64,000 nt of DNA from Dehalococcoidia bacterium (GTDB taxonomy: Bacteria > Chloroflexota > Dehalococcoidia > GIF9 > JBFMDU01). Positions 5,174 through 58,532 of the stretch are shown here, piece after piece; the first letter of the stretch is position 1, and the number at the start of each line of letters is the position of its first letter. The position numbers and the translations under genes are program-made. The notes beneath the pieces are model-generated. The model was not told the origin of the DNA. It did not search any database and saw nothing but the letters and a program-made list of their open reading frames with translations. The stretch lies in assembly GCA_034431935.1 (NCBI GenBank), contig DAOUCU010000059.1, positions 2,132 to 66,131 of the forward strand. Direction: 5' to 3'.

Positions 5174-5333
5174 ATCATGGCATTATAAGATTGGCCCGGC
5201 AGGTGGTCAAAAAAGTCAGGGTTATCCCTGCCTGGGACTGTACGAGTCGTTTTGCAAGGGTTGTCTCGTTTGTGGTATAAACCGCGGAACTAGTGGCGGG
5301 TGTCCCGCTCGGGTAATGGAGGCATTGGCAATT

Positions 5334-17885: not shown

Positions 17886-17952
17886 CCTCATGATTCCAGT
17901 CGCATACTCTGTCTCAGTACCAAGTCACACGATGATGTTCAAGGAGTAGGCT

Positions 17953-18843
17953 GTGGCTGAAATCGGTCGGTTGCTGACAGCAATGGTCACGCCTTTCGAC
18001 GCCGCAGGCAAAGTCAACTATGAAAAGGCCAAGAAGCTGGCCGTGGCTTTGTTGAAGTCTGGAAGTGACGGCCTGGTGGTTGCCGGTACAACTGGCGAAT
18101 CACCAACTTTGACCCACGAAGAGAAACTGAGGTTGTTTTCGGAAATCAGGTCGGTGGTAGACAAACCGGCGGCGGTCATTGCGGGGACCGGCAATAACGA
18201 TACGGCCGAAAGTATCCGGTTTACCATGGAGGTGGAGAAGACTGGCGTTGATGCCGTTCTTCTGGTGGTACCTTATTACAACCGTCCGACTCAGGACGGC
18301 CTTTACCTGCACTTTAAATCGATTGCCGACGCTACTAGATTGCCGTGCATTCTCTACAACGTGCCGGGACGTACTGTCACCAGCCTATCTTCTGAGACGG
18401 TTGTCAAATTGAGTCAGATTCCCAACATCATCGGGATTAAAGAGGCCAGTGCCAATTTGGAACAGATTGCTAGGATAATCGACGGTGCGCGTAAGGGCTT
18501 CCTCGTCTGGAGCGGTAACGACGCCGACACTCTGCCGATTATGGCAATCGGCGGTTACGGCGTTATCGCTGTGGCCTCACACCTGGTGGGCAACCAGATT
18601 AAAGACATGATTAACCTCGTGCTTGCAGGCAAAGTGACTGAGGCGGCGGTGATCCATAGAAGGCTTCTACCGCTGGTTAATGCGCTGTTTGTCATACCTA
18701 ATCCTATGCCGATTAAATACGCACTTGGTGTTGTCGGCTTCGACGTCGGCAAGCCACGCCTACCGTTGACAGAGCCGGATGAAAAGTCGGCCGGTGTTAT
18801 CAGGAGTGCTCTCAGGAACTGCCAGATTGACCTTCTAATCTAG
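17953..18843 (+). CDS. dapA: 4-hydroxy-tetrahydrodipicolinate synthase
   Basis: GTG start with AAGGAG 6 nt upstream. Motifs TAMVTPF, VVAGTTGESPTLT and YNVPGRT, 296 aa. Confidence 0.9.
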   Translation: MAEIGRLLTAMVTPFDAAGKVNYEKAKKLAVALLKSGSDGLVVAGTTGESPTLTHEEKLRLFSEIRSVVDKPAAVIAGTGNNDTAESIRFTMEVEKTGVDAVLLVVPYYNRPTQDGLYLHFKSIADATRLPCILYNVPGRTVTSLSSETVVKLSQIPNIIGIKEASANLEQIARIIDGARKGFLVWSGNDADTLPIMAIGGYGVIAVASHLVGNQIKDMINLVLAGKVTEAAVIHRRLLPLVNALFVIPNPMPIKYALGVVGFDVGKPRLPLTEPDEKSAGVIRSALRNCQIDLLI

Positions 18844-18885
18844 GGCCGAGTGCCCGGCAATTCGAAAATTGGGAGTTGAGACAGC

Positions 18886-21078
18886 ATGAGCGAGATTATC
18901 CTCACAATCGACGGGGTGGAAGTGAAAGGAAAAGAAGGGTCTACCGTGCTTCAGGCATCCCGGGACGCCGGCATCTACATCCCGGCATTGTGTTCGCATC
19001 CCGATTTGAAGTCCATGGGACAGTGCCGACTATGTGTGGTAGAGATCGAAGGCGCCTCGGAGCCGATGCTGGCTTGCCAGACCCAGGTTGCCTCCGGAAT
19101 GGCGGTGGTCACGAACTCAGAAACAGTGAAGAAGCGAAGACAGGAGAATCTGAGGGATATTCTGCTGACTCATCCTCACGCCTGCCTTGACTGCTGGAGA
19201 CGTGAGCGTTGTAAACCGTTTGATATCTGCCTGCGTAACGTGACTATTACTGAGCGATGCGTTACCTGTGAGAAGAACGGCCACTGCGAATTGCAGATGG
19301 TGGCCGATTTTATCGGCGTGCTACCGGAGATACCTTACACGCCCAAAAAGGAACCGGTCCGGGTTGAGAGTCCGTTCTTCATTCGTGACTACAATCTGTG
19401 TATTCTTTGCGGCAGATGTGTCCGTGTTTGTCGTGATGTGCGCGGCGTCGGCGTCTATGCCTTTGATAACGAAGAGAAACCGACCAGAGTGCTGACGGTG
19501 AAGGATGATTCGGTACTCGAGTCCGGATGTCGGTCGTGCATGGCCTGCGTCGAAGTCTGTCCTACAGGGGCCCTGATGGACCGGCGTAAGGAGAAGCTCT
19601 GGGACGACCGTCAGGCATTCGTAGTGCCGTGCAAGCACGCCTGTCCGGCCCACATCAATATCCCCCGTTATGTCACCTTGTGCGGTGCCGGTAAGTATGC
19701 CGAAGCCCTCGCGGTGATCCGGGAGAAGGTACCGTTCCCGGGGTCACTTGGCCGGGTGTGTATTCACCCATGTGAAGAAGCCTGCCGCCGCGGCGAGTTG
19801 AACTCACCCATTTCCATCAAGGAGCTGAAGCGCATTGCCGCCGACCGCGGGGGAGATAACTGGAAGGTCAAATCGAGGAAGCTGGCTGCGACCGGCAGGA
19901 AAGTTGCTGTAGTCGGCGCCGGACCGGCTGGTCTGACGGCGGCATACTATCTGGCGAAATGCGGCCATTCCGTTACCGTCTTTGAGGCTTTGCCAGAAGC
20001 CGGGGGAATGATGCGCGTGGGCATTCCTGAGTATCGTTTGCCAAGGAATGTTCTGGCTGACGAGGTGAGGGTAATTACGGACACCGGAGTGGAACTGAAG
20101 ACGAATACCAGGGTAGAGTCGGTTGACGAGCTTATGTCCAAGGGTTTTGAGGCTGTTCTGCTGGCGGTAGGCGCCCATCGCGGCACCAAGATGCGGGTGC
20201 CCGGCGAAGAATTGCCGGGCGTTATGGATGGGGCCACTTTTCTCAGGGAAGTGAATCTTGGCAGGAAAGTGAATGTCGGGAACAAAGTCGCGGTTATCGG
20301 CGGCGGCAACTCGGCGATTGACAGTGCCCGTGTGGCGCTGAGGGCCGGTGCCAGGGAGGTGGTGATGATCTACCGGCGGACACGCGCTGAGATGCCGGCG
20401 GCCCCCGAAGAGATTGAGGACGCTTTGCATGAGGGAATCAAGATTGAATTCCTGGCGGCGCCAAATAAGATTGTCCAGAAAGACGGCCGGCTCAGCCTTG
20501 AGTGTATCCGTATGAGGCTGGGCAGACCTGACGCCAGCGGGCGGCGTTCTCCGGAACCGATACCAGGGAGCGAGTATTCCGTGGAGTACGACACCATCAT
20601 CGCGTCTATCGGCCAGGCTCCGGATGTGCCCCAGGGATTCGGCGTCAAGACCGGCCGGGGCAATGTCATAGCGGCCGATGAAAAGACACTTGAGACCAGC
20701 CGCAGGGGAGTGTTCGCCGCCGGTGACACGGTTACCGGTCCGGCTTCGGTAATAGAGGCCATTGCCGCCGGCCGCTTGGCGGCTGTCTCCATCGATAAGT
20801 ACCTTGGTGGTAAGGGTGTGATTGAAGAGTCGCTGGCCCCGGTCGAGCCTGTAAGCAGGTGGCTGGGTAAAGACGACGGCTTCAGTGAGAAGAAGCGTGA
20901 GGAAGGCGCTCTGCTGGCTCCGGCTGCCCGTGTCGGGAGTTTTATCGAGTGTAAAGCGGCCTTAACCGACGAACAGGCAAGGCGCGAGGGCAACCGCTGT
21001 CTTCGTTGCGATCTGAGATTGACTATATGTCCCGCGCCGATGCCTCCGGCACGGAAGGAGTCACCGGTCTTAGCCTAG
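18886..21078 (+). CDS. Fusion protein: NuoG/HydA-type N-terminal Fe-S module ([2Fe-2S], His-ligated and two [4Fe-4S]) joined to a GltD/NfnB-like FAD/NAD(P)H oxidoreductase
   Basis: 730 aa. The N-terminal Cys patterns (CSHPDLKSMGQCRLC...C; HPHACLDCWRRERC; CILCGRCVRVC; CRSCMACVEVCP) are followed by GltD-type clusters (CKHACPAHINIP...CIHPCEEACRRG) and by FAD (VAVVGAGPAGLTAAYYL) and NAD(P)H (VAVIGGGNSAIDSAR) dinucleotide folds. Confidence 0.8.
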   Translation: MSEIILTIDGVEVKGKEGSTVLQASRDAGIYIPALCSHPDLKSMGQCRLCVVEIEGASEPMLACQTQVASGMAVVTNSETVKKRRQENLRDILLTHPHACLDCWRRERCKPFDICLRNVTITERCVTCEKNGHCELQMVADFIGVLPEIPYTPKKEPVRVESPFFIRDYNLCILCGRCVRVCRDVRGVGVYAFDNEEKPTRVLTVKDDSVLESGCRSCMACVEVCPTGALMDRRKEKLWDDRQAFVVPCKHACPAHINIPRYVTLCGAGKYAEALAVIREKVPFPGSLGRVCIHPCEEACRRGELNSPISIKELKRIAADRGGDNWKVKSRKLAATGRKVAVVGAGPAGLTAAYYLAKCGHSVTVFEALPEAGGMMRVGIPEYRLPRNVLADEVRVITDTGVELKTNTRVESVDELMSKGFEAVLLAVGAHRGTKMRVPGEELPGVMDGATFLREVNLGRKVNVGNKVAVIGGGNSAIDSARVALRAGAREVVMIYRRTRAEMPAAPEEIEDALHEGIKIEFLAAPNKIVQKDGRLSLECIRMRLGRPDASGRRSPEPIPGSEYSVEYDTIIASIGQAPDVPQGFGVKTGRGNVIAADEKTLETSRRGVFAAGDTVTGPASVIEAIAAGRLAAVSIDKYLGGKGVIEESLAPVEPVSRWLGKDDGFSEKKREEGALLAPAARVGSFIECKAALTDEQARREGNRCLRCDLRLTICPAPMPPARKESPVLA

Positions 21079-21104
21079 ATTAGGGTGTAGTGTTCGTGTG
21101 TCAT

Positions 21105-21143
21105 AAAGGAGCGCTGTCGACCTTACCGGCGCTCCTTTTTTGC
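21105..21143 (+). terminator. Rho-independent terminator after the Fe-S/GltD fusion gene
   Basis: AAAGGAGCGC-(13-nt loop)-GCGCTCCTTTTTTGCG is a 10-bp GC-rich stem followed immediately by a T6 tract. Confidence 0.7.
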
Positions 21144-21169
21144 GTCCGTTATTTATATTGTCGATGCCT

Positions 21170-21198
21170 GTTGACCGAAGCGGGATTGTGTGATTAAA
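21170..21198 (+). promoter_or_regulatory. Putative promoter of the nuoE-nuoF-fdhA-nfnAB operon
   Basis: -35 TTGACC (21170-21175), a 17-bp spacer, and an extended -10 TGaTTAAAT (21190-21198). This leaves a leader of about 110 nt to the nuoE-like start. Confidence 0.4.
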
Positions 21199-21314
21199 TA
21201 TCCGGGACATACGCGGTTTACTCTAAGTGATTTCACTATCTACCTGGGCCGCCCGAGCGCGGCTCATTTCTATGTACGGTGGCTCCGTTCCAAAGCTTGC
21301 CTGTTGGAGGTACC

Positions 21315-21764
21315 ATGGATGTTGAGCTAGCCAAATCGCTTGAGCCTTACCGCAACCAGAAGGGTGCCCTGATCACCGTGCTTCAGAAGGTTCAGGAAAA
21401 GTACGGCTACCTGCCAAAGGATTTGTTGTCTGAGGTTGCCAAACTCTGCCGTACCTCCGTGAGTGACGTATTTGGAGTGGCCTCATTCTACGCACAGTTC
21501 TATTTCTCTCCCAGAGGGCGTCATACAATAAAGTGCTGTGTGGGAACTGCCTGCCACGTTCGTGGTGGTCAGCGTATTCTGGAAAGTGTGGAGAGAGAAC
21601 TGGAGACGAAGGCTGGTGGTACAACCCCGGATGGCAGATTCTCGGTGGAGAAAGTGGCTTGTTTCGGTTCTTGTGCGCTGGGGCCAGTAATCGTTATTGA
21701 CCGCAATGTTTACGGCCGCATGACACCAACTAAGGTTAAGGGTGCTCTGGAGAATTATCGTTAA
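21315..21764 (+). CDS. NuoE/FdsG/HoxE-like thioredoxin-fold [2Fe-2S] subunit
   Basis: CxxxxC...CxxxC arrangement (CCVGTACHVRGG ... CFGSCALGP). GGAGG lies 4 nt upstream of the ATG at 21315. An in-frame upstream ATG exists at 21279. Confidence 0.8.
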   Translation: MDVELAKSLEPYRNQKGALITVLQKVQEKYGYLPKDLLSEVAKLCRTSVSDVFGVASFYAQFYFSPRGRHTIKCCVGTACHVRGGQRILESVERELETKAGGTTPDGRFSVEKVACFGSCALGPVIVIDRNVYGRMTPTKVKGALENYR

Positions 21765-21777
21765 GGTGCGGTGAGAC

Positions 21778-24700
21778 ATGACCTTCGAAGAGTTAAAGTC
21801 ACGAGCTTTGGCTGAATGGCAGAGCTGGCACGACAGCCCAAAAGTACGTATCCTCGTGGGTACAGCTACGTGCGGCAAGGCCGCCGGTGCCGACAGTGTT
21901 GTAAAGGCTATTAGAGAGGAGCTGGCAAATCGGCACGTGGACGCAATTGTAACCGGGGTTGGTTGCATAGGCCTGTGCTATTTGGAGCCGATAGTAGATA
22001 TCATCAAGCCGGGTCAGCCCCGCATCGCGTACGGAAATGTCACGCCGGAGATTGCCGTTGAATTAGTGCGTGACTACGTCGTCGGAGACAATCCTCGTCG
22101 GGACTTGGCGCTGGGGACTATTGGAGAAGGTTCAGTCCAAGGAATACCCCGGCTTTTCGATACTCCGGTTCTCAAGCACCAGGTTCGGCTAGTCTTACGC
22201 AATTGCGGTTTTATCGACCCTGAAAGTATTAGTCACTATATTGCCAATGGTGGCTACTCAGGCTTTGTCAGGGCTCTCGGTATGAAGGCCGATCAGGTGA
22301 TTGACGAACTAAAGAAATCGGGGTTGAGGGGACGTGGTGGTGCCGGTTTTCCTACGTGGCAGAAGTGGGAATTCTGCCGCAGGTCACCCGGCACCCCAAA
22401 GTATGTCATTTGTAATGCCGATGAGGGTGACCCGGGGGCATTTATGAACCGCTCGCTACTGGAGGGCGACCCCCACGCCTTGTTAGAGGGCATGTTGATC
22501 GGCGGCTATGCGATTGGTGCTAGTCATGGCTACATATACTGCCGCGCTGAATACCCCCTGGCTTTGGAGCGCCTGCGCCTTGCGATTAGCCAGATGGGAA
22601 AGTGCGGTTTGATCGGCGATAACATTCTGGGCTCTGGCTTCAGCTTCGATATTACGATTAAGGAGGGTGCCGGAGCCTTTGTTTGTGGTGAAGAGACTGC
22701 TTTGATGGCCTCAATCGAAGGCAAGCGGGGTATGCCGCGTCCCCGTCCGCCCTTCCCGGCGGTCTCGGGTCTATGGGGTAAGCCAACGAATATCAATAAC
22801 GTTGAGACCTGGGCCGATGTTGCCCTGATACTTCAAAGAGGTGCCGACTTTTATGCTGGTTATGGTGTTCCTTCATGCAGGGGTACTAAGACCTTCTCGC
22901 TTGTGGGTAAGGTTGAGCGCACGGGGTTAATCGAAATCCCGTTTGGCATGACGCTGAGAAAAGTAATATATGACATCGGCGGCGGTATTCTGAAAGGAAA
23001 GAAATTCAAAGCAGTTCAGACCGGTGGTCCATCGGGGGGATGTTTGCCTCCTGCGGTGCTTGATATGCCGATTGATTACGAGTCCTTGACTGCCGCCGGG
23101 TCAATTATGGGGTCGGGTGGGATGATTGTGATGGATGAAGGGACATGTGTTGTCGACCTGGCCAAATACTTTCTTAATTTTGTTCAGGCCGAATCGTGCG
23201 GCAAGTGCGTGCCGTGCCGTGTGGGGACGCGGCAGATGCTGTCAGTCTTGACCCGGATAACCAGTGGCCAGGGTCGGGTGGGTGACATCGAACTGCTAGA
23301 AAAACTGGCCAGCACCGTCAAGAATGGCTCGCTCTGCGGTCTTGGCCAGACAGCTCCGAACCCGGTGCTAACCACGCTTAAGTATTTTCGCGAGGAGTAC
23401 GAAGAGCACATCAAGAAGCATCACTGCCGCGCGGCGGTATGCAAGGGGCTGGTTGAGGCGCCGTGCAGTCATACCTGCCCTGCCGGTATCGATGTACCGA
23501 GGTACATACGGTTTATCGAACAGGGCGAGTTTGGTGAGTCTTGCGCCACTATCCGTGAGAAGGTGCCGTTCCCCGGTGTGCTGGGCAGGGTCTGTTTCCA
23601 TCCATGTGAATCGAGATGCCGGCGCGGCCAGCTCGAACAGCCTGTTGCTATCAAGGAACTTAAGCGGCTTGCGGCTGATTTCGATAGCGGCGTCTGGAAG
23701 AAGCGGTTGACGCCAACCAAGCCGACAGGGAAAAGGGTGGCGGTAGTCGGCTCCGGTCCGGCCGGTCTGACCGCGGCTTACTATCTGGCCCGGCTGGGGC
23801 ATGAGGTGACTGTTTTTGAGGCATTGCCTCATGCCGGCGGCATGATGCGAGTTGGTATTCCTGAGTACAGGTTGCCCCGTAAAGTGTTGGATGGTGAAAT
23901 TGATGACATTCTCAGCATGGGCGTCACTATTAAAACGAATACGAAAGTGGCTTCACTGGATGTCCTCAAGGCTGATGGGTTTCAGGCGGTATTCGTGGCT
24001 GTCGGTGCCCACCGTGGTCAAAAGATTGGTATACCCGGAGAAGGAAGCTCCGGTGTCATGGAGGGTGTGGAGTTTCTGAGGTGCATCAGCCTTGGTGGAA
24101 AAGTGGTGGTGGGGGAGCGCGTAGCGGTTATCGGCGGCGGTAATGTTGCTATCGATGCCGCGCGCACCGCTCTGAGATTGGGTGCTAAGGATGTCTTGAT
24201 CCTTTATCGCCGTACCGAGGCGGAGATGCCGGCGGCACCAGAGGAAATCGAAGGTGCACGGCAGGAAGGAGTCAAGATAGTCTTTCTTGTAGCACCGCAC
24301 CGCATAGAGAAAAGGGATGGTAAGCTGGTTCTGGAAATGTTGCGGATGACACTCGGGGACAAGGCTGATGCCAGAGGTCGAAGACAGCCGGTAGCCGTTG
24401 ATGGTAGCCAGTTCTCGGAAGAGTTTGATACGGTAATTGTGGCCATTGGTCAGGTCCCCGATGTTCCCGCAAATTTCGGACTACCATCGGGTGACGGCGG
24501 CGTTATCAAAGTTGACCCGGATACGCTGGCGACTGTGAAGCCGGGAGTATTCTCCGGTGGTGACTGTGTCAGCGGTCCGGCTTCTGTGATTGAGGCAATA
24601 GCCGCCGGCCGCCAGGCTGCGGTCTCGATCGACCAATTCCTCGGCGGTAAAGGGAACATCGAAGAGAAATTGGCTCGTGAGGAGACGATAACCCCGCCGG

Positions 24701-24861
24701 AAATAGAAGAGGGAGAGGCCTACCGTCCCAAAATGCGTCATGCAAGCATGATTAGGCGCTGTGCCAGCTTCACCGAGGTAGATATTGGTCTCACTAGAAA
24801 AGCCGGAGTAAAGGAAACAAAGCGATGCCTTCGGTGCGACCTCGAGCCGAGGGAGGAGTAG
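21778..24861 (+). CDS. NuoF/FdsB-like NAD(H)/FMN subunit with an N-terminal thioredoxin-like [2Fe-2S] domain, fused C-terminally to a GltD/NfnB-like FAD/NAD(P)H oxidoreductase
   Basis: 1027 aa. FMN motif GRGGAGFPTWQKW, NADH site CNADEGDPGAF, N3 cluster ESCGKCVPCRVG...CGLGQ, then GltD-type Cys clusters (CSHTCPAGIDVP...CFHPCESRCRRG) and two dinucleotide folds (VAVVGSGPAGLTAAYYL, VAVIGGGNVAIDAAR). Confidence 0.85.
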   Translation: MTFEELKSRALAEWQSWHDSPKVRILVGTATCGKAAGADSVVKAIREELANRHVDAIVTGVGCIGLCYLEPIVDIIKPGQPRIAYGNVTPEIAVELVRDYVVGDNPRRDLALGTIGEGSVQGIPRLFDTPVLKHQVRLVLRNCGFIDPESISHYIANGGYSGFVRALGMKADQVIDELKKSGLRGRGGAGFPTWQKWEFCRRSPGTPKYVICNADEGDPGAFMNRSLLEGDPHALLEGMLIGGYAIGASHGYIYCRAEYPLALERLRLAISQMGKCGLIGDNILGSGFSFDITIKEGAGAFVCGEETALMASIEGKRGMPRPRPPFPAVSGLWGKPTNINNVETWADVALILQRGADFYAGYGVPSCRGTKTFSLVGKVERTGLIEIPFGMTLRKVIYDIGGGILKGKKFKAVQTGGPSGGCLPPAVLDMPIDYESLTAAGSIMGSGGMIVMDEGTCVVDLAKYFLNFVQAESCGKCVPCRVGTRQMLSVLTRITSGQGRVGDIELLEKLASTVKNGSLCGLGQTAPNPVLTTLKYFREEYEEHIKKHHCRAAVCKGLVEAPCSHTCPAGIDVPRYIRFIEQGEFGESCATIREKVPFPGVLGRVCFHPCESRCRRGQLEQPVAIKELKRLAADFDSGVWKKRLTPTKPTGKRVAVVGSGPAGLTAAYYLARLGHEVTVFEALPHAGGMMRVGIPEYRLPRKVLDGEIDDILSMGVTIKTNTKVASLDVLKADGFQAVFVAVGAHRGQKIGIPGEGSSGVMEGVEFLRCISLGGKVVVGERVAVIGGGNVAIDAARTALRLGAKDVLILYRRTEAEMPAAPEEIEGARQEGVKIVFLVAPHRIEKRDGKLVLEMLRMTLGDKADARGRRQPVAVDGSQFSEEFDTVIVAIGQVPDVPANFGLPSGDGGVIKVDPDTLATVKPGVFSGGDCVSGPASVIEAIAAGRQAAVSIDQFLGGKGNIEEKLAREETITPPEIEEGEAYRPKMRHASMIRRCASFTEVDIGLTRKAGVKETKRCLRCDLEPREE

Positions 24862-24863
24862 AG

Positions 24864-27539
24864 ATGACGACGAATGTCACTCTTACCATAGATGGCAGGG
24901 CAGTCTCTGTTCCACCGGGAGTAACCGTCCTGGAGGCGGCACGTAAGGCTGGCGTTTACATACCGACCCTCTGTCACCATGAGGCGTTAGACCCCTACGG
25001 CGGTTGCCGTATGTGTATCGTCGAAATTGAAGGTATGCGTGGCTTCCCTACCTCGTGTTCGACGCCCGTGGCCGATAAAATGGTGGTCAGGACCAGCACA
25101 ACCCAGATTCAGGAACTGAGGCGCAATATCTTCGAGCTGGTCCTTAGCGAGCACCCTTTCCAGTGCACGTCCTGTGTCAAGAATATGCGCTGTGAACTTC
25201 AACAGGTGGCTGCCCATATCGGGCTGGACAGAGTTTCTCTGCCGTCTGCAGTCAAGGACCTGCCGGTGCTTACTGATAGTGCTTTCTTTGACCGCGATTA
25301 CAAGCTGTGTATTCTCTGCGGCCGCTGTGTGCGTATGTGTCAGGAAGTGCGTGGCGCCGCCGCTATCGCTTTTACTTACAGGGGTGGTGATTCGCTGGTA
25401 GGCACTGCATTCGGGCAGACCCTTCAGGATGCCGAATGCCAGTTCTGCGGCGCCTGTGTTGACGTTTGTCCCACCGGCGCCCTGATGGACCGTGCTCTCA
25501 AGCCGGTCCGCTCGGTTGACCGCCGCGTCATTACCACCTGTCCTTACTGCGGAGTCGGCTGTCAGCTTCTTCTTTCGGTCAAGGACGGGAAGATAGTCTA
25601 TTCGGAAGCCGCACCCGGCATGTCGCCCAACAATGGACAGTTATGCGTCAAGGGCAAATACGGTATTCAAGAGTTCGTGCACCATCCGGAGCGTCTGGCC
25701 AGACCACTAATCCGTAAGGGCGGCAGGCTGGTCGAAAGCACCTGGGACGAGGCGCTTTCGTTGGTCGCATCCAGGCTATCACAATACAGGGGTGACCAGT
25801 TCGGTTTCGTCTCTTCGGCCAAGTGTACCAACGAGGAGAACTACGTGGGGCAGAAATTCGCTCGTCTGGTCATGGGCACCAACAACGTCGACCATTGCGC
25901 CCGGCTGTGTCACGCCTCGACCGTGGCTGGTCTAGCACAGGCCTTTGGTAGTGGTGCTATGACAAATCCCATCGGAGAAATCGCTGATGCCGGCTGTATC
26001 GTGGTCATCGGCAGTAACACCACGGAAGCTCACCCGGTGATCGGCCTCGAGGTCAAGCGCGCGGTGCGGCGTGGTGCTAAACTCATCGTGATTAATCCAC
26101 TTGAAATTGCTCTCTGCCGCAGGGCTGATATCTGGCTCAGACACAGACCGGGCAGTGACGTAGCCCTTGTTATGGGCATGGCCCGGGTTATTCTGGAGCA
26201 GGGTTTGGCCGATATGGACTTCGTCAATCAGCGCTGTGAAAACTTTGATGAGTTTAAAGAATCGCTGGGGGAATACGACCTTGATACAGTTGAAAGGCTG
26301 ACCGGTGTCAGCCGAGAAAATATCGTCGAAGCCGCCCGGACGTATGCCACCTTCAAACCGGCGGCTATTCTTTACACAATGGGCATAACACAGAGCAGCC
26401 ACGGCACCGATAATGTCCTCGCCATCGCCAACCTTGCCATGCTCACGGGCAATCTCGGCAGGTCTTCCAGCGGGGTTAATCCACTGCGCGGGCAGAATAA
26501 TGTCCAGGGTGCCTGCGATATGGGTGCTTTGCCTAACGTCTATCCGGGTTATCAGTCGGTTGCCGACCCGGCAATTGCTGCTAAGTTCGAAGCCGCTTGG
26601 GGCGGTAAGATGAACACCAAACCAGGGCTGACCATGACCGAGATGGTCGGCGCCATTGACCGCGGTGAAATGAGGGCTTTATATGTCATGGGCGAGAACC
26701 CGGTGCTGGCCGATGCTGATGCCAATCATGTTATTAAGGCTCTTGAGAAGCTGGAATTCCTTGTAGCTCAGGACATCTTTCTGACTGAGACCAGTCGGCT
26801 GGCCCATGTGGTACTCCCGGCGGCCAGCTTTGCCGAGAAAGATGGTACTTTTACCAACACCGAGCGCCGTGTCCAGCGTGTTCGTAAGGCGGTCGAGCCA
26901 CCGGGAGAGGCTTTGCCTGACTGGAGGATTGTCTGTAATGTAGCGTCCAGAATGGGGGCGAGCGGGTTCGCCTATTTGACTGCGGAAGAGATTATGAAAG
27001 AGATTGCTGCCTTGACACCGAGCTACGGAGGTATTACCTACGAGCGTCTGGAAAGTTGCGGGTTGCACTGGCCGTGTCCCATGATAGACCATCCCGGGAC
27101 GCCGGTCCTGCACCGGACAACCTTCAGCCGCGGCAAGGGTAGATTCTTCCCGCTCAAGTACCGTCCGCCGGCAGAGTTGCCGGACGCGGACTATCCACTG
27201 GTTCTAACTACAGGACGCTCTCTATTCCACTATCATACCGGCACTATGACTAGGAAGGTAGCGGGGCTTAACCAGATTGAGCCGGGCGGCACCGTTGAAA
27301 TCAATCCGGTTGATGCTGAAAGTCTTGGCATCGCTGATGGCGAGACGGTGAGAGTGAGTTCGCGGCGCGGCGCGGTCATGACCAAGGCAAAGGTGACCGA
27401 AGCTGTGGCCCCCGGAGTGGTCTTCATGGCGTTCCATTTTGCCGAGAGTCCGGCCAATGTGCTGACAAATGCGGCGCTTGACCCGGTGTGCAAGATACCG
27501 GAGTTCAAGGTATCCGCAGTAAGGATAGAAAAGGCTTAA
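24864..27539 (+). CDS. fdhA: Formate dehydrogenase catalytic subunit (FdsA/FdhF-like), Cys-type, with a NuoG-like N-terminal Fe-S domain
   Basis: Start at ATG 24864 with GGGAGGAG upstream, 2 nt after the previous stop. It has the Mo/W-bisPGD fold and a 4Fe-4S site CPYCGVGC...C. The catalytic motif NNVDHCARLCHAS aligns with FdhF RVUHGPS with Cys replacing Sec, and the Arg motif PLRGQNNVQGACDMGALPN is present. Confidence 0.9.
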   Translation: MTTNVTLTIDGRAVSVPPGVTVLEAARKAGVYIPTLCHHEALDPYGGCRMCIVEIEGMRGFPTSCSTPVADKMVVRTSTTQIQELRRNIFELVLSEHPFQCTSCVKNMRCELQQVAAHIGLDRVSLPSAVKDLPVLTDSAFFDRDYKLCILCGRCVRMCQEVRGAAAIAFTYRGGDSLVGTAFGQTLQDAECQFCGACVDVCPTGALMDRALKPVRSVDRRVITTCPYCGVGCQLLLSVKDGKIVYSEAAPGMSPNNGQLCVKGKYGIQEFVHHPERLARPLIRKGGRLVESTWDEALSLVASRLSQYRGDQFGFVSSAKCTNEENYVGQKFARLVMGTNNVDHCARLCHASTVAGLAQAFGSGAMTNPIGEIADAGCIVVIGSNTTEAHPVIGLEVKRAVRRGAKLIVINPLEIALCRRADIWLRHRPGSDVALVMGMARVILEQGLADMDFVNQRCENFDEFKESLGEYDLDTVERLTGVSRENIVEAARTYATFKPAAILYTMGITQSSHGTDNVLAIANLAMLTGNLGRSSSGVNPLRGQNNVQGACDMGALPNVYPGYQSVADPAIAAKFEAAWGGKMNTKPGLTMTEMVGAIDRGEMRALYVMGENPVLADADANHVIKALEKLEFLVAQDIFLTETSRLAHVVLPAASFAEKDGTFTNTERRVQRVRKAVEPPGEALPDWRIVCNVASRMGASGFAYLTAEEIMKEIAALTPSYGGITYERLESCGLHWPCPMIDHPGTPVLHRTTFSRGKGRFFPLKYRPPAELPDADYPLVLTTGRSLFHYHTGTMTRKVAGLNQIEPGGTVEINPVDAESLGIADGETVRVSSRRGAVMTKAKVTEAVAPGVVFMAFHFAESPANVLTNAALDPVCKIPEFKVSAVRIEKA

Positions 27540-27552
27540 AGGAGGCCTGCTG

Positions 27553-28410
27553 ATGTACCGGATTGTAGCCAAGGAGACGCTGGTCCCAAGCATCCAGTTG
27601 ATGAAAATAGACGCTCCGGCGGTGAGCCGCAAAGGCAGGGCTGGCCAGTTCGTCATTGTCCGCACCCACGAGCGCGGCGAGCGGATTCCTCTGACTATTG
27701 CCGATATGGACCCCAAAGAAGGGACGGTGACCATTGTTTTTCAGGAGGTCGGCAAGAGCACTCGCGAGCTGGCCATGTTTAAAGCCGGGGACTTAATTAA
27801 GGACTTCGTCGGCCCGCTGGGCATTCCAACTCATGTTGATAAAGTCGGCACTGTCGTTTGCGTCGCTGGCGGCGTTGGAGTGGCTCCCATCGCCCCCATT
27901 GCCCGGGCCTTTAAGCAGGCGGGCAACAGGGTGATTACCATCATGGGCGCGCGGAGCAAGAACCTGCTTTTCTGGGAAGACCGACTGAAGGCCGTCAGTG
28001 ACGAGTTGATTGTAACTACCGATGATGGCACCTACGGCCGCAAGGGCGTCGTCACCGTTCCTCTGAAAGAGGTGCTGGAGCGGCCTGAAAAAATAGCCGA
28101 GGTCATTGCTATCGGTCCGGTGGTGATGATGAAGTTCTGCTGTGTGACCACCAGGCCGTTCAACGTCAAGACCATCGTCAGCCTCAACTCGCTGATGCTT
28201 GATGGTACCGGTATGTGCGGCTGTTGCCGTGTTTCTGCTGGCGGTCAGACCAAGTTCGTCTGCGTTGACGGCCCGGATTTCGATGGTCACACTATCGACT
28301 GGGACATCTTCCAGGCACGCCAACAGATATATCTTGACGAAGAAAAGCAGGCGTTGCAGGAGTGGGAAAGGTGTGGGTGTGTCAGCGCCGCTCAGAAAGC
28401 GAGGGCTTAA
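27553..28410 (+). CDS. nfnA: NfnA/SudB/PyrK-like FAD/NAD(P)H oxidoreductase subunit with a C-terminal [2Fe-2S]
   Basis: 285 aa. AAAGGAGG lies 8 nt upstream. It has a ferredoxin-NADP reductase fold (GQFVIVR...RIPLTIAD; VVCVAGGVGVAPI) and a C-terminal Cys cluster MCGCCRVS...CVDGP. Confidence 0.8.
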   Translation: MYRIVAKETLVPSIQLMKIDAPAVSRKGRAGQFVIVRTHERGERIPLTIADMDPKEGTVTIVFQEVGKSTRELAMFKAGDLIKDFVGPLGIPTHVDKVGTVVCVAGGVGVAPIAPIARAFKQAGNRVITIMGARSKNLLFWEDRLKAVSDELIVTTDDGTYGRKGVVTVPLKEVLERPEKIAEVIAIGPVVMMKFCCVTTRPFNVKTIVSLNSLMLDGTGMCGCCRVSAGGQTKFVCVDGPDFDGHTIDWDIFQARQQIYLDEEKQALQEWERCGCVSAAQKARA

Positions 28411-28413
28411 GCC

Positions 28414-29808
28414 ATGGCCAAGCTTGATTTGAACCGTGTGGAGATGCCTCGTCAGGAGCCTAAGGTCCGGGCGAAGAACTTCAAAGAAGTGGCCCTGGGA
28501 TATACTGAAGATATGATGAAGGCTGAGGCCAGCCGGTGCATTCAGTGCGCCAAGCGTCCCTGCGTCGCCGGCTGTCCGGTCAATGTTGATATTCCCGAGT
28601 TCATCAGGGCACTTAAAGAGGGCAATTTGGCCGAGTCAGTGCGAATTCTCAAGGGCAAAAATGCCCTGCCGGCTATATGCGGTCGCGTCTGTCCTCAGGA
28701 GACTCAGTGCGAGGAGGCATGTACTTTGGGCAAGAAAGGCGCGCCTGTAGCCATCGGCCGCCTCGAGCGGTATGTCGCCGACTGGGAGCTTGCCCACCAC
28801 TCTGAGGGCAAGCCTCAGATACCGCCGCCGACCGGTAAGAGAATAGCCGTGGTTGGCACCGGGCCTGCCGGCCTCACCTGCGCCGCCGATCTCGCTAAGA
28901 TGGGCCATAAGGTGACCATGTTTGAGGCACTCCATGAGCCCGGTGGGGTGCTTATCTACGGTATCCCCGAGTTCCGTCTTCCCAAGGCTATCGTCAAGGC
29001 CGAGGTCGAGTACGTCAAGTCACTCGGCGTCGAGGTGCGTCTCGATTCCGTTATCGGCAAGCTGAATACCGTTGATGAGATTCTGGGCAGCTACGATGCC
29101 GTTTTCCTCGGCACCGGTGCCGGTCTGCCGATGTTTCTCGGTATCCCGGGAGAGAACCTGAATGGGGTCTATTCTGCCAACGAGTTCCTGACTCGTGTGA
29201 ACCTTATGAAAGCATACCTGTTTCCCGAGTACGACACGCCGGTGAAGAAAGGCCGTAAGGTGGCTGTCGTCGGCGCTGGCAATGTCGCCATGGACGCTGC
29301 CCGTTGTGCCCTGCGTCTGGGCGCCGAGCAGGTCTATATCGTCTACCGCCGCTCCAAAGTGGAAGCTCCGGCCAGGCATGAAGAGCTGGAAAACGCCGAA
29401 GAAGAGGGTGTCATTTTCAAATGGCTGACCAACCCCAAGCGCTTCATCGGCGACGCCAGAGGGTGGGTGACCGGGATGGAATGCCTTGAGATGGAGCTTG
29501 GCGAGCCGGATGCGTCGGGTCGGCGCCGTCCCATTCCCAAACCCGGTACCGAGTTCACCATTGAGTGCGATGTCGCCATCGTCGCCCTCGGCACTACCCC
29601 CAACCCTCTAATTGCCCAGACCACCCAGGGCCTGGCGACTACCAGCCACGGTACTGTAGTGGCCGATGAGCAGACTGGTAAGACAAAGAAAGATAGGGTC
29701 TGGGCCGGAGGCGATGTCGTCACCGGTGCCGCCACCGTCATCAGTGCTATGGGTGCTGGCAAACGTGCCGCGGCCTCAATAGACCAGTTCCTTAGAGGCG
29801 CTCAATAA
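28414..29808 (+). CDS. nfnB: NfnB/SudA/GltD-like NADPH-dependent oxidoreductase subunit
   Basis: 464 aa. Fe-S cluster motifs CIQCAKRPCVAGCP and CGRVCPQETQCEEAC, an FAD fold IAVVGTGPAGLTCAADL and an NADPH fold VAVVGAGNVAMDAARCALR. Confidence 0.85.
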   Translation: MAKLDLNRVEMPRQEPKVRAKNFKEVALGYTEDMMKAEASRCIQCAKRPCVAGCPVNVDIPEFIRALKEGNLAESVRILKGKNALPAICGRVCPQETQCEEACTLGKKGAPVAIGRLERYVADWELAHHSEGKPQIPPPTGKRIAVVGTGPAGLTCAADLAKMGHKVTMFEALHEPGGVLIYGIPEFRLPKAIVKAEVEYVKSLGVEVRLDSVIGKLNTVDEILGSYDAVFLGTGAGLPMFLGIPGENLNGVYSANEFLTRVNLMKAYLFPEYDTPVKKGRKVAVVGAGNVAMDAARCALRLGAEQVYIVYRRSKVEAPARHEELENAEEEGVIFKWLTNPKRFIGDARGWVTGMECLEMELGEPDASGRRRPIPKPGTEFTIECDVAIVALGTTPNPLIAQTTQGLATTSHGTVVADEQTGKTKKDRVWAGGDVVTGAATVISAMGAGKRAAASIDQFLRGAQ

Positions 29809-29852
29809 AATCACCCCTGCCAAATTGGAGAGCGCAGGTTGCGGGTGAGAAC

Positions 29853-30368
29853 CTAACCCGTCAGTGTTTTTGCTATCTCCGTCGCCCACTTATCTATTGC
29901 ATCCCACTTGCGGAAGTCGCCGGCCTGTGCCTTGACCCGGCCCGTCATGAATTTCTCCAGGAAATTCAGTCTCTTAGTATCAATCAACCCGTGGAAAATG
30001 GCGATATCATTGGGGTGTATCCGTTCGATAGCCGGTTTCAGCCTTCCCGGATATTTCCAGCCGCTCACTAATTCCACCGCATCGCCTTCGCCCGTTGGAC
30101 CGCTGGAAAATATCCATACCTGACGTTCGGTTAACAGCTTTTCATTCCGGATGACGAACTTGACCGCCTCCCTGCGCCACTGCCCGATGTAAACGGCGCT
30201 GCCCATGATTATCGCCCGGTAATGGGAAAGGTCGCTTGCCCGGTTGAAAGGCAGGACATCCACTTCCAGCCCTGCCTTACGTAGCACCTGTCCTATCTTG
30301 TTAGCGATCTCCGCCGTTGCGCCGTACTTGGAAGCAAACGCCACCAGAACCCTGTTCTCAATCTGCAT
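29853..30368 (-). CDS. Flavodoxin-domain protein (long-chain flavodoxin-like, HemG-like architecture)
   Basis: 171 aa. Flavodoxin-like phosphate-binding N-terminus VLVAFASKYGATAEIA and IMGSAVYIGQW. Confidence 0.55.
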   Translation of the reverse strand: MQIENRVLVAFASKYGATAEIANKIGQVLRKAGLEVDVLPFNRASDLSHYRAIIMGSAVYIGQWRREAVKFVIRNEKLLTERQVWIFSSGPTGEGDAVELVSGWKYPGRLKPAIERIHPNDIAIFHGLIDTKRLNFLEKFMTGRVKAQAGDFRKWDAIDKWATEIAKTLTG

Positions 30369-30460
30369 CGTAGCTCTCCGTTACCACCTGTCTGCTAATA
30401 GCCTACCATACCGTGCAATAGACCCTTTGTAGATACTGCCGGGTGGGGTAGAATATCTCC

Positions 30461-33025
30461 ATGTCGGTAACTCCCATCCGCCGCCAGTACCTGCGCGTCA
30501 AACAGCAGCACCCCGGTGCTATTGTCCTCTTCCGCCTCGGTGATTTTTACGAGACCTTCGACGAGGACGCTAAGGTCGCTTCACGTGAGCTTGAAATCGT
30601 CCTTACCTCACGTGAAATGGGCAAGGGCCAGCCGGTGCCGATGGCCGGAATTCCATATCACGCACTTGATAATTATTTAGCGAAGCTCATCGACCGTGGC
30701 TACAAGGTGGCCATATGCGAGCAGTTGACCACGTCGGGTAAGGGGTTGGTAGAGCGTGATGTGGTGCGCGTCGTCACACCGGGGACGGTCACCGAGCCAG
30801 ACCTCCTGGAAGGTAAGAGCAACAATTATCTGGTCGCCTTATCGCTTGAAGGCGATGCCGCAGGGATAGCTTACGTAGATATCAGTACCGGAGAGTTCGC
30901 TGTTACCCAGCTTGCGGCCGGTCGGGCCAATGCCGAACTGGAACGCCTCGATCCCGCGGAACTGCTCGTCCCCGAAGGCGTTCCGTTAGACGGCGTCAGG
31001 TGTCCGAAGACGGTAACGAAGCTGGAAGCCTACTGGTTTGACGTCGAGGTCGCCGCCGAGACTCTTAAGGGCCATTTTAAGGTATCCAGTCTTGAAGGCT
31101 ACGGTTGTGCCGGGCTTCCCCTCGCTATCGGCGCCGCCGGCGCCGTCGTGCACTACCTTCAGGAAACGCAGAAATTGGTCTTGGCACAGCTCGAGCGTCT
31201 TTCCACTTATTCTACCGGGTCGTTCATGGTGCTTGACGCTCAGACACGTCGCAATTTGGAATTGTTTCAGAATAGCCGCACCGGTGCCGCGACCGGGTCA
31301 TTACTTTCTGTTGTTGATATGACCGTTACCGCGATGGGCGGGCGGCTGTTGAAGCGCTGGCTGGGGCAACCCCTGCTCGATATCGGAGAGTTAGGCAAGC
31401 GGCACCAGGCGGTTGGATGGCTTGTTTCAAATACCACCGCGCGGCAGTCAATTAGAGCGGCTCTGGGCGATATTGCCGATCTGGAAAGGCTTATGAACCG
31501 CGTGGTAGCATCATCGGCCATGCCGCGCGAAGTAGCCAGGATCGGCACCAGCTTGAGCAGGGTCCCTGAGCTTAAAGCTGCTATCGCTGGCAGTGAAGCC
31601 CTGTCGGCTATTGACGGTGAGTTGAAAGCCAGTCCCGAAGTCGTTGACCTGATATCCCGCGCCATTGTCCCCAATCCGGGCCTGCTGACCGATGGCAGCG
31701 TAATACGCGAAGGCTTCTCTGAAGAATTGGACAGGTTGCGCCAGGCATCCGGCGATGCCAGACAATACCTGGCCAATCTTGAGAAGCAGGAACGGGAGCG
31801 CACCGGCATCAAGACGCTTAAGGTGGGCTACAACCGCGTTTTCGGCTACTACATTGAAGTATCGAAGCCTAATTTGGCTTCGGTGCCCTCCGACTATATC
31901 CGCAAGCAGACCATTGCCAATGGAGAGCGTTTCTACACACCTCAGCTTAAGGAATACGAGTCGCTGGTCCTCTCTGCCGAAGAGCGGCTGGCCGAGCTCG
32001 AGCAGGGGCTTTTCCGGCAGGTCTGCGTACAGGTAGCGGCCTCGCGTCAGGTGGTACTTTCGACAGCGCGAGCGCTGGCCGAGCTCGACGTGCTGGCCAG
32101 TCTTGCCGAAGCCGCCGTCAGGTACGGCTATGTCCGGCCGGAAATGACCGCGGATGATGTTATTACAATAAAAGCGGGTCGGCACCCTGTTGTTGAACGG
32201 TTTCTCGGCGGCGATGGTTTTATTCCCAATGACGTCTATCTTTCGGGCAAGGACACTCAGGTCATCATCCTCACCGGGCCGAACATGTCGGGCAAGTCAA
32301 CATATTTGCGGCAGGTGGCTTTGATTGTTCTTATGGCGCAGATTGGCAGTTTTGTGCCGGCGGAATCGGCGAGAATTGGCATTGTTGACCGTGTTTTCAC
32401 TCGCATCGGGGCCCAGGAGGATCTGGCCGCCGGTCAGTCGACTTTTATGGTGGAGATGATCGAGACCGCTAACATCCTCAACAATGCCACGCCGCGTTCG
32501 CTGATAATCCTTGATGAGATTGGGCGTGGCACCAGCACCTATGACGGGCTTTCAATTGCCTGGGCGGTGGCTGAGTATATCCACAACCATCCTAAGCTCG
32601 GGGCAAAGACCCTGTTCGCCACCCACTACCATGAACTGGTCGAGCTCGCCGCCGTCCTGCCGCGGGTCAGGAACTTCAATGTGGCGGTGACCGAGGAAAA
32701 GGGCAGGGTGGTATTTCTCAGGCAGATTGTCCCCGGTGGTGCCGATCGCAGTTACGGCATTCACGTTGCCCAGCTTGCTGGCCTGCCGAAGTCAGTCCTC
32801 TACCGTGCGCAGGAAATCCTGGCCGGGCTTGAGAGAAAACAGCAGGTCGAGATTAAACTGGCCCGTGGCAAGGTGAAGGAAACGTCCGCGCCCCAGTTGC
32901 CGCTATTTACCGGCGGTACTGAGCTTGTAAAAGAGCTTGCCGGTCTTGATGTTGACTCCATGTCGCCGCTGGAAGCTATCGCCAAGCTGTACGAGTTGAA
33001 GAGGAAGGCGAGAGACTCGGCGTAG
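30461..33025 (+). CDS. mutS: DNA mismatch repair protein MutS
   Basis: 854 aa. Mismatch-binding N-terminus TPIRRQYLRVKQQHPGAIVLFRLGDFYETF, Walker A GPNMSGKST and the DEIGRGTSTYDG motif. Confidence 0.9.
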   Translation: MSVTPIRRQYLRVKQQHPGAIVLFRLGDFYETFDEDAKVASRELEIVLTSREMGKGQPVPMAGIPYHALDNYLAKLIDRGYKVAICEQLTTSGKGLVERDVVRVVTPGTVTEPDLLEGKSNNYLVALSLEGDAAGIAYVDISTGEFAVTQLAAGRANAELERLDPAELLVPEGVPLDGVRCPKTVTKLEAYWFDVEVAAETLKGHFKVSSLEGYGCAGLPLAIGAAGAVVHYLQETQKLVLAQLERLSTYSTGSFMVLDAQTRRNLELFQNSRTGAATGSLLSVVDMTVTAMGGRLLKRWLGQPLLDIGELGKRHQAVGWLVSNTTARQSIRAALGDIADLERLMNRVVASSAMPREVARIGTSLSRVPELKAAIAGSEALSAIDGELKASPEVVDLISRAIVPNPGLLTDGSVIREGFSEELDRLRQASGDARQYLANLEKQERERTGIKTLKVGYNRVFGYYIEVSKPNLASVPSDYIRKQTIANGERFYTPQLKEYESLVLSAEERLAELEQGLFRQVCVQVAASRQVVLSTARALAELDVLASLAEAAVRYGYVRPEMTADDVITIKAGRHPVVERFLGGDGFIPNDVYLSGKDTQVIILTGPNMSGKSTYLRQVALIVLMAQIGSFVPAESARIGIVDRVFTRIGAQEDLAAGQSTFMVEMIETANILNNATPRSLIILDEIGRGTSTYDGLSIAWAVAEYIHNHPKLGAKTLFATHYHELVELAAVLPRVRNFNVAVTEEKGRVVFLRQIVPGGADRSYGIHVAQLAGLPKSVLYRAQEILAGLERKQQVEIKLARGKVKETSAPQLPLFTGGTELVKELAGLDVDSMSPLEAIAKLYELKRKARDSA

Positions 33026-58496: not shown

Positions 58497-58532
58497 GTGT
58501 CCTCCTTAAATGCAATTTTAAAATGCCGAGCT

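Follow-up and report, generated by a model that had tools for sequence, protein, structure and literature searches.

We analysed a 64,000-nt stretch of DNA from a Dehalococcoidia bacterium (contig DAOUCU010000059.1, positions 2,132 to 66,131; hereafter the window), in which six intact open reading frames (ORFs), all on the + strand, form a cluster at 18886-29808 around a predicted formate dehydrogenase (Fdh) gene. The first gene, g1 (18886..21078), encodes a 730-aa protein in which a NuoG-type N-terminal Fe-S domain is fused to a GltD module of StnC/SfrB type, binding NADPH and flavin adenine dinucleotide (FAD). The second, g2 (21315..21764), encodes a 149-aa BfuC/NuoE-like, thioredoxin-like [2Fe-2S] subunit (C1 cluster). 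The product of g3 (21778-24861, 1027 aa) is again a fusion: its N-half (21778..23412) is a BfuB/NuoF-type core with a thioredoxin-like N-terminal domain, a flavin mononucleotide (FMN)/NADH site, a B1 [4Fe-4S] cluster and a B2 Zn site, and its C-half (23413..24861) is a StnC/NfnA(ABC)-type NADPH-FAD-2x[4Fe-4S] module. FdhA, encoded by g4 (24864..27539, 891 aa), is a Cys-type formate dehydrogenase with a Mo/W-bis(pyranopterin guanine dinucleotide) (bisPGD) site and a NuoG-like N-terminal Fe-S domain. The last two genes encode an NfnA/NfnS subunit (g5, 27553..28410; PyrK-like, with FAD/NAD(H) site and [2Fe-2S]) and a bifurcating-type NfnB/NfnL subunit (g6, 28414..29808; NADPH-FAD-2x[4Fe-4S]). Pfam and NCBIfam agreed with the first-pass annotation of this DNA in gene content, in both fusions and in the presence of three GltD-like modules; for g3 as a whole Pfam returned Complex1_51K, SLBB, NADH_4Fe-4S, Fer4_20 and Pyr_redox_2. 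Every cofactor motif examined in the six genes was present, and the connections with NAD(H) and NADP(H) proposed at first hold.

Two gene starts were corrected. Translation of g2 likely begins at ATG 21315 rather than at GTG 21279, and that of g4 at ATG 24864 rather than at 24825; in both cases GGAGG precedes the chosen codon and the public gene call agrees. With these starts g2-g6 form the tight five-gene operon described before, with intergenic gaps of 13, 2, 13 and 3 nt. A 236-nt spacer separates g1 from g2, and 3′ of g1 there is an intrinsic-terminator-like hairpin with a 12-bp stem and a U-run (21105..21142, + strand; -21.2 kcal/mol, z = -3.2 vs. shuffled sequences). The hairpin, its U-run and the spacer that follows support the earlier view that g1 is separately terminated. 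An Rfam scan of window positions 17500-31000 gave no match to a molybdenum cofactor or other riboswitch, and a promoter scan gave no signal exceeding shuffle expectation. A near-identical cluster is present in the NCBI metagenome-assembled genome GCA_964523555.1, where g3 is ~100% identical, and the nearest named homologues belong to Chloroflexota/Dehalococcoidia. The same six-gene set was found in independent assemblies (loci L082 and L083 of our scans), and the cluster is therefore not an assembly artefact.

The NuoE/NuoF pair had been described as FdsG/FdsB-like; our comparisons place it elsewhere. The g2 product matches PF01257 with 163 bits, and its Cys75/80/116/120 correspond to C74/79/115/119 of Thermococcus sibiricus NfnC, i.e., it has the C1 [2Fe-2S] feature of BfuC. 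End-to-end alignments of the g3 N-half were obtained with B subunits of bifurcating enzymes of known structure, namely NfnB of Caldicellulosiruptor saccharolyticus (9bov_B, 719 bits), T. sibiricus NfnB (713 bits), A. mobile NiFe-HydB (711 bits) and Sporomusa ovata StnB (708 bits), whereas FdsB chains reach just 374-449 bits. Identity of g3 to proven bifurcating BfuB proteins is 60-65%. We found the motifs of the FMN/NAD(H) site (GRGGAGFPT, CNADEGDPGAF and GAGAFVCGEETAL) and invariant ligands of the B1 [4Fe-4S] cluster (C474/477/480/520). The B2 Zn ligands C457/H544/C550/C555 correspond to C437/H524/C529/C534 of T. sibiricus NfnB and do not vary among 16 homologues, and the thioredoxin-like domain at the N-terminus (B5 site) carries C32...C63-x3-C67, the pattern seen in StnB and in C. 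saccharolyticus NfnB. The non-bifurcating NuoF homologues known so far lack the B2-B5 features (PMC9304861). Given the bit scores, the B2 Zn ligands and the NfnB/StnB pattern of the N-terminal domain, we assign g2/g3 to the Bfu family (HydC/HydB, StnA/StnB) on sequence grounds, and not to FdsG/FdsB. A classical FdsGBA identity was ruled out by the FdsB scores together with that of the FdsG model PRK05988, which gave 123.6 bits on g2, under the NCBIfam cut-off of 198. No FdsD model was run, but each of the six genes of the cluster and of its flanking genes was assigned to another family.

A separate observation concerns the DNA of this region. Compared with L082, the window is 91-98% identical across dapB...g1 and from 23195 on, while positions 21400-23195 (g2 codon ~30 to g3 codon ~472) are only 24-71% identical, with both edges sharp. 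The divergent stretch spans BfuC and, as far as the B1 motif, the N-terminal/FMN/NADH core of BfuB; it seems that recombination has swapped the NADH-dehydrogenase cassette within an otherwise near-identical operon.

As for the other half of g3, all BfuB alignments end at residue 560, within the motif HIKKHHCRAAVCKGLVE, and the C-terminal ferredoxin-like B3/B4 domain of BfuB is not present. Two unfused Chloroflexota relatives with the same kind of operon, L170 and L169 (73% and 59% identical to g3 in the N-half), carry two CxxCxxCxxxCP motifs, i.e., the B3/B4 domain, from exactly the residue-560 point. At this point g3 and its fused relatives run on with PCSHTCPAGIDVPRY, which is the start of the GltD Fe-S domain. 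In solved NfnABC the low-potential electrons pass from C1 to B3 and B4, and ferredoxin docks between the C-terminal domain of BfuC and the B3/B4 domain, also in the T. sibiricus enzyme (PMC11829005; PMC12018979). Judging by these alignments, the ferredoxin-like domain of BfuB has been exchanged for a GltD module at the same junction; since the mapped ferredoxin site is B3/B4, the fusion takes that site away and has an NADP(H)-FAD-2x[4Fe-4S] unit there instead. Ferredoxin had been named as a probable partner; for the core this finds no support, the ferredoxin-reducing BfuB domain of solved NfnABC being the very part that GltD replaces. Fused proteins were found in 104-107 of the ~170 loci recovered in genome and metagenome scans. 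These numbers, the invariant junction residues and the agreement of independent assemblies rule out that the fusion is a frameshift or assembly artefact.

The C-half of g3 scores 418 bits with residues 98-567 of C. saccharolyticus NfnA; together with the 708-719 bits of the core, this bears out the kinship with Stn/Nfn enzymes noticed at first. Its C567/C606/C610/K629 align with the A7 ligands C108/C147/C151/K170 of that protein, and C563/C614/C1017/C1020 make up the second GltD cluster. The Lys ligand of the FAD-proximal [4Fe-4S] cluster (A7/C7) is K629 in g3 and K315 in g1; both align with K170 and are invariant, and in g6 the same position is occupied by Glu118. The GltD modules of g3 and g1 are 58% identical to each other and each is 41% identical to g6. 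At the FAD-proximal position the StnC/NfnA module has Lys and NfnL has Glu, and it was concluded that the FAD of the Lys-type module is a non-bifurcating NADPH input, while NfnL is bifurcating (PMC10482914; PMC12018979). Thus, the three GltD/NfnB-like modules listed by the first-pass annotation are all there, but they are not of a single kind: by their ligands g1 and g3 are assigned to the non-bifurcating StnC/NfnA(ABC) type, and only g6 to the bifurcating NfnL type. At their C-terminal ends g1 and g3 share a tail, FxEV...RCLRC, that aligns with FKEV...RCIQC at the N-terminus of NfnB (window 24745-24840 in g3 vs. 28468-28560); the segment with two cluster ligands is thus circularly permuted between the two GltD subtypes. 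Such a permutation accounts for the way in which the GltD module can be attached behind another domain.

The g4 product was recognized by TIGR01591 with 863.5 bits (cut-off 666.25) and aligned over its full length with FdsA of the Rhodobacter capsulatus type (782-800 bits). The active-site residues Cys349-His350 (CARLC349H350) and Arg542 (NPLR542GQNNVQG) are conserved, in line with the Cys-type Fdh described before, and by these residues FdhA is predicted to be a catalytically complete formate dehydrogenase. Its Fe-S ligands are C37/48/51/65, H97-C101-C104-C110, C149/152/155/159 and C192/195/198/202; FdhA thus has the NuoG-type [2Fe-2S], the His-ligated [4Fe-4S] and the two further [4Fe-4S] clusters that define BfuA. 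FdsABG(D) of R. capsulatus and Cupriavidus necator shares with the cluster the FdsA match and the same Cys-His-Arg residues, but lacks a FAD/NADPH module. In the relatives L083, L085 and L087 a TGA codon stands at the catalytic Cys position, so that these are selenoproteins and the window holds the Cys version. Selenocysteine (Sec) or a split gene in g4 of the window was ruled out, as the ORF is continuous with Cys349. One of the relatives, L087, carries in addition at 3925-7998 a gene for a StnC-like protein ([2Fe-2S], GltD, 2x4Fe-4S and molybdopterin domains) with an in-frame TGA followed by His at the catalytic position. This gene has as neighbours a canonical BfuCB pair and a small, separate BfuA-like protein, and its product would be a putative "active-type" StnC with selenocysteine.

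Two groups of known enzymes come close to this arrangement. Electron-bifurcating Fdhs of the Bfu type (HylABC-FdhF2 of Gottschalkia acidurici and the predicted Type 1 of Carboxydothermus hydrogenoformans) share with the cluster a NuoE/NuoF core with Bfu features and a NuoG-type chain to a Mo/W-pterin site, which in Type 1 lies within BfuA itself (PMC9304861), as it does in g4. These known enzymes keep BfuB B3/B4 and reduce ferredoxin, whereas the window has an NADP(H)-FAD module there. The Stn/NfnABC enzymes of S. ovata, C. saccharolyticus and T. sibiricus (PDB 8oh5, 9bov and 9n5u) are the best PDB matches of the BfuBC core and have the same Lys-ligated GltD-type NADPH-FAD-2x[4Fe-4S] module, with all ligands aligned. 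In them, however, GltD is inserted in BfuA, which has an inactive Fdh-like domain, and BfuB keeps its ferredoxin arm; in the window GltD sits on BfuB in place of that arm and BfuA is, by its residues, a catalytically complete Fdh. The cluster can be described from these comparisons as a cross of the two groups that misses one defining feature of each (B3/B4 and GltD in BfuA, respectively).

A search for the NuoF::GltD fusion in other genomes, which the first-pass annotation had called for, returned more than 100 loci across many phyla, with >120 full-length proteins 64-79% identical to g3. Record titles of fused loci name Desulfobacterales, Chloroflexota, Planctomycetota, Omnitrophota, Verrucomicrobiota, Acidobacteriota, Bacteroidota, Firmicutes and a Loki archaeon. 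We tallied the partner adjoining the NuoE-NuoF::GltD pair over 107 fused loci; in 42 no partner type was assigned. The partner is an Fdh-type subunit in 19 loci and an [FeFe] hydrogenase in another 19, while the commonest identified type (27/107; L003, L038, L044, L089 and 23 more) comprises a ~240-aa NuoG-N-like protein and a ~530-aa protein with the glutamate-synthase domain PF01645. The latter set looks like an NADH/NADPH-fed glutamate-synthase-like enzyme. In most fused loci with an identified partner a BfuA-type protein lies 3′ of the pair (5′ in five loci). The catalytic Cys/Sec-His and Arg were present in 11 of the 16 Fdh partners checked, in addition to the window, and the remaining five (L009, L010, L014, L024, L045; order A-E-F::GltD) are inactive remnants. 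Their arrangement, A(remnant)-BfuC-BfuB::GltD, looks like a rearranged Stn. BfuA likewise lacks the catalytic residues, as StnC does, in unfused E-F-A-NfnA-NfnB loci. Such unfused BfuC-BfuB-A(remnant) sets were seen in L053-L058, L062 and L168, in Bacteroidales, Eubacteriales, Syntrophorhabdus, Methanothrix and Desulfocapsaceae, and are followed by nfnA-nfnB in 6/7 loci and by nfnA only in L058. Clean monophyly of the fused BfuB proteins was not obtained, as 13 of 104 fused N-halves were nearest to an unfused protein and recombination confounds the analysis.

In the literature searched, no characterised NuoF::GltD enzyme was found. The sole mention is of a HydB that carries a glutamate-synthase domain, encoded in archaeal clusters for hybrid [FeFe]/[NiFe] hydrogenases and presented as an AlphaFold model only (Greening et al., Cell 2024; PMC11216029). 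By the description in that paper, with NuoF-type and GltD chains modelled, this is probably the same fusion as in g3, and the Loki archaeon locus recovered in our scans (L038) does carry it. The partner there is a hydrogenase or a glutamate-synthase-like protein and not an Fdh. Nor did we find a paper describing the Fdh version of the fusion together with g1 and NfnAB. The architecture was thus rightly called unfamiliar insofar as no characterisation was found, but its parts had been described in part, as archaeal HydB and, by annotation, as a g1-like beta subunit of the Moorella enzyme. What appears to be new here is the Fdh version with the ferredoxin arm replaced by an NADPH module; the fusion itself had been noted once in silico in the hydrogenase context.

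Our preferred interpretation, to which we give a probability of about 45%, is that the core g2-g3-g4 would be a soluble three-subunit Fdh/CO2 reductase of the Bfu family connected with NAD(H) as well as NADP(H), the latter in place of ferredoxin. FdhA, with its Mo/W-bisPGD site and NuoG-like Fe-S chain, would take the role of BfuA; its gene starts 2 nt after g3, and it is the sole BfuA candidate for g2-g3 at this locus. Electrons from formate would pass through the FdhA clusters to the B1-FMN-C1 site and leave it either to NAD+ at the FMN or through the former ferredoxin branch to the FAD and on to NADP+. The net reaction would be approximately 2 formate + NAD+ + NADP+ <-> 2 CO2 + NADH + NADPH. 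The enzyme would be reversible and in relatives could serve the Wood-Ljungdahl pathway. NfnAB would then connect the resulting NADH and NADPH to ferredoxin, and g1 would probably give FdhA a second, Moorella-type NADPH route.

Several observations weigh against this interpretation. Sending low-potential electrons to NADP+ is a loss of energy that a kept bifurcation core would save, and such a loss sits oddly with the strongly conserved Bfu-specific features. In the five fused loci with inactive BfuA, NADPH must be a donor and not a terminal acceptor, which favours another topology. Further, the AlphaFold2 monomer of g3 had a mean predicted local distance difference test (pLDDT) value of 70.9 and a predicted template-modelling score of 0.48, with junction residues 550-566 below pLDDT 50; given this uncertainty at the junction, no placement of the GltD clusters relative to the core was inferred.

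The main rival is a Stn-like bifurcation with CO2 in the role of ferredoxin. NADPH at the g3 FAD would be the mid-potential donor, and the B1-FMN-C1 site would split its electrons to NAD+ (downhill) and to the FdhA chain (uphill, ~ -430 mV), according to 2 NADPH + NAD+ + CO2 <-> 2 NADP+ + NADH + formate; in reverse this would be a formate-driven transhydrogenase. All Bfu-specific bifurcation features are conserved, the energetics of the kept machinery make better sense on these terms, and the E0′ of CO2/formate is near that of ferredoxin (PMC9304861, Table 1). In Stn/NfnABC it is by the Lys-ligated GltD module that NADPH enters, and the fused loci with an inactive Fdh-like BfuA resemble a rearranged Stn in which NADPH is necessarily the donor. 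Moreover, L085 lies within a cluster of carbon monoxide dehydrogenase/acetyl-CoA synthase and methylenetetrahydrofolate reductase genes of the Wood-Ljungdahl pathway, where uphill CO2 reduction is needed. On the other hand, GltD is attached at the low-potential exit (B3/B4), whereas solved Bfu enzymes take mid-potential donors on the BfuA side, so that the roles of the B1/C1 branches would have to be swapped; and formate counts as a mid-potential third substrate in characterised Fdh-Bfu enzymes (PMC9304861). We regard this reading as unlikely for the window. A broader proposal, equally doubtful in our estimation, is that NuoF::GltD marks a widespread Bfu branch performing ferredoxin-independent bifurcation, in which the electrons of NADPH go in part to NAD+ and in part to a low-potential partner, CO2 here and protons in the hydrogenase versions. 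If true, organisms with the Wood-Ljungdahl pathway would reduce CO2 to formate at -430 mV with nicotinamide cofactors only. The Wood-Ljungdahl context rests on the relative L085 only: the window contains no genes of this pathway, and its remaining genes are housekeeping.

It is also conceivable, if rather improbable, that the core is an uncoupled NAD(P)+-dependent Fdh in which FMN and FAD serve as independent ports of a single Fe-S wire and the Bfu features are an evolutionary leftover. Such an enzyme would behave as the NADP-dependent Fdhs of Moorella or Thermococcus onnurineus with an NADH port added. The Moorella thermoacetica enzyme consists of a 76-kDa SfrB2 beta subunit and a 96-kDa alpha subunit (SfrA2/FdhF3) (PMC13040438), and T. 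onnurineus Fdh3 is the second characterised NADP-dependent Fdh of the GltD type (PMC8965080). Both pair an Fdh catalytic subunit with a GltD-type FAD/NADPH subunit, and such characterised enzymes are simple NADP-dependent ones; in contrast to the cluster they lack a NuoE/NuoF module. The 27 loci with a glutamate-synthase-like partner point the same way, since no low-potential chemistry is needed there and a dual-nucleotide diaphorase would fit. What speaks against uncoupled ports is that g3 retains the N-terminal domain and the B2 site as well as its high identity to proven bifurcating BfuB.

The part played by the remaining genes bears on two more alternatives. In Pfam, g1 shows Fer2_4, His-ligated 4Fe-4S, 2x4Fe-4S, Fer4_20 and Pyr_redox_2 domains. 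Across 14 homologues its [2Fe-2S] ligands C36/47/50/64, the H96-C100-C103-C109 set, two CxxCxxCxxxC motifs and the GltD ligands C249/253/292/296/300, K315 and C705/708 are invariant, and FAD (GxGxxG) and NADPH (GGGN...YRR) motifs were found. Beyond the canonical NuoG N-terminal motifs g1 has an extra invariant set of four cysteines (C115, C125-x2-C128-x5-C134; window 19228-19287) that is not in the N-terminal domain of FdhA and could hold one more Fe-S cluster. On g1 every NCBIfam model stays below its cut-off. Homologues of g1 are named "formate dehydrogenase (NADP+) beta subunit" by JGI, and by annotation and length it resembles FdhB/SfrB2, which in the NADP-dependent Fdh of Moorella is the beta subunit.

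The identity of g5 and g6 is clearer. g5 matches PRK06222/NF004862 with 411.8 bits (cut-off 220) and has a DHODB_Fe-S_bind domain with Cys222/224/225/237. g6 matches TIGR01316 with 611 bits (cut-off 471.75), scores 614 bits with Thermotoga maritima NfnB (4ylf_B) and has the N-terminal CxxCxxxxCxxxCP motif (Cys42/45/50/54). The two are predicted to be a canonical NfnAB (NfnSL) pair, matching NfnAB of T. maritima and Pyrococcus furiosus also in the Glu ligand of g6; the difference is that here the pair is embedded in an Fdh operon and in relatives has a third conserved gene, g1, 5′ of it. Chloroflexota conserve g1-NfnA-NfnB as a trio whose members overlap slightly or lie 12-15 nt apart in the loci examined (L083 15820-20290; L087 8001-12480; L169 7001-11475; L170 7001-11481; L171 7001-11470; L172 8001-12457). 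The trio is tightly packed directly 3′ of fdhA in L083, L087, L169 and L170, lies 3′ of a NuoE fragment in L171 and occurs by itself in L172-174; in L086 and L088 g1 is found singly. This distribution suggests a three-subunit Nfn-type enzyme, of which we met no description in the literature searched. Synteny in L082 is identical to that of the window, L083 has E-F::GltD-FdhA(Sec)-g1-NfnA-NfnB in one tight operon, and L084 adjoins hyp genes. As the trio is conserved and usually stands behind fdhA in Chloroflexota, the arrangement in the window appears to derive from a conserved bfuC-bfuB-fdhA-g1-nfnA-nfnB operon in which the BfuB ferredoxin domain was changed for GltD and g1 was moved upstream.

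Ferredoxin most plausibly enters through NfnAB only. A direct use by the core, with ferredoxin docking at the fused GltD Fe-S domain beside the mobile BfuC domain, strikes us as quite improbable. In that case formate, NAD(H), NADP(H) and ferredoxin would all be handled by one complex, which might form a supercomplex with g1 and NfnAB. For archaeal HydB a low-potential acceptor, probably ferredoxin, was indeed proposed at the glutamate-synthase domain (Greening et al., PMC11216029), and NfnSL reduces ferredoxin via the [4Fe-4S] clusters of NfnL. Also in favour are the position of nfnAB directly 3′ of Bfu genes in several phyla (L053-55, L057, L058, L062, L168) and the translational coupling of fdhA and g1 in relatives. 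Yet the g3 module has the Lys ligand of StnC and not the Glu of NfnL, and the cluster has no ferredoxin gene. Besides, only 3/19 Fdh-type fused loci have g1 and nfnAB, and the trio also stands alone (L172).

The last alternative would have FdhA pair only with g1 in a Moorella-type alpha/beta enzyme, with g2-g3 a separate NADH:NADP+ diaphorase/transhydrogenase sharing the operon. The lengths of g4 and g1, 891 and 730 aa, are close to those implied by the 96- and 76-kDa Moorella subunits, and g1 is immediately 3′ of fdhA in the four Chloroflexota loci named above. In the window, however, the terminator and two genes lie between g1 and fdhA, and fdhA follows g3 closely; 16 of the 19 Fdh-type fused loci have no g1; and a NuoG-type BfuA accompanies E-F::GltD in most loci with a visible neighbour, a role for which FdhA is the only candidate here. 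We therefore hold this pairing to be very unlikely.

Among electron-bifurcating enzymes the Bfu type is, to our knowledge, the largest class and the one least understood, and its ferredoxin site was mapped as late as 2025. By exchanging this site for an NADPH-flavin module, nature has provided an experiment on the low-potential branch, present in >100 loci including those of Chloroflexota, Desulfobacterota, Planctomycetota, Omnitrophota, Verrucomicrobiota and Asgard archaea. The variant may reveal a ferredoxin-free coupling of CO2/formate to both nicotinamide pools. Its formate version bears on the question of how the first step of the Wood-Ljungdahl pathway is driven, or run backwards, in uncultured subsurface Chloroflexota, and on whether a CO2 reductase running on NAD(P)H alone can be designed.

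Two further observations were made in the surroundings of the cluster. A Flavodoxin_5 (PF12724) gene at 29853-30368 on the - strand converges on the end of nfnB. The otherwise syntenic L082 has no counterpart to window positions 29855-30297, which indicates a recent insertion or deletion. About 28 kb downstream of the cluster, at 57498-59333 on the - strand, there is an EtfA/EtfB pair, which may be part of a further system of flavin-based electron transfer in this organism.

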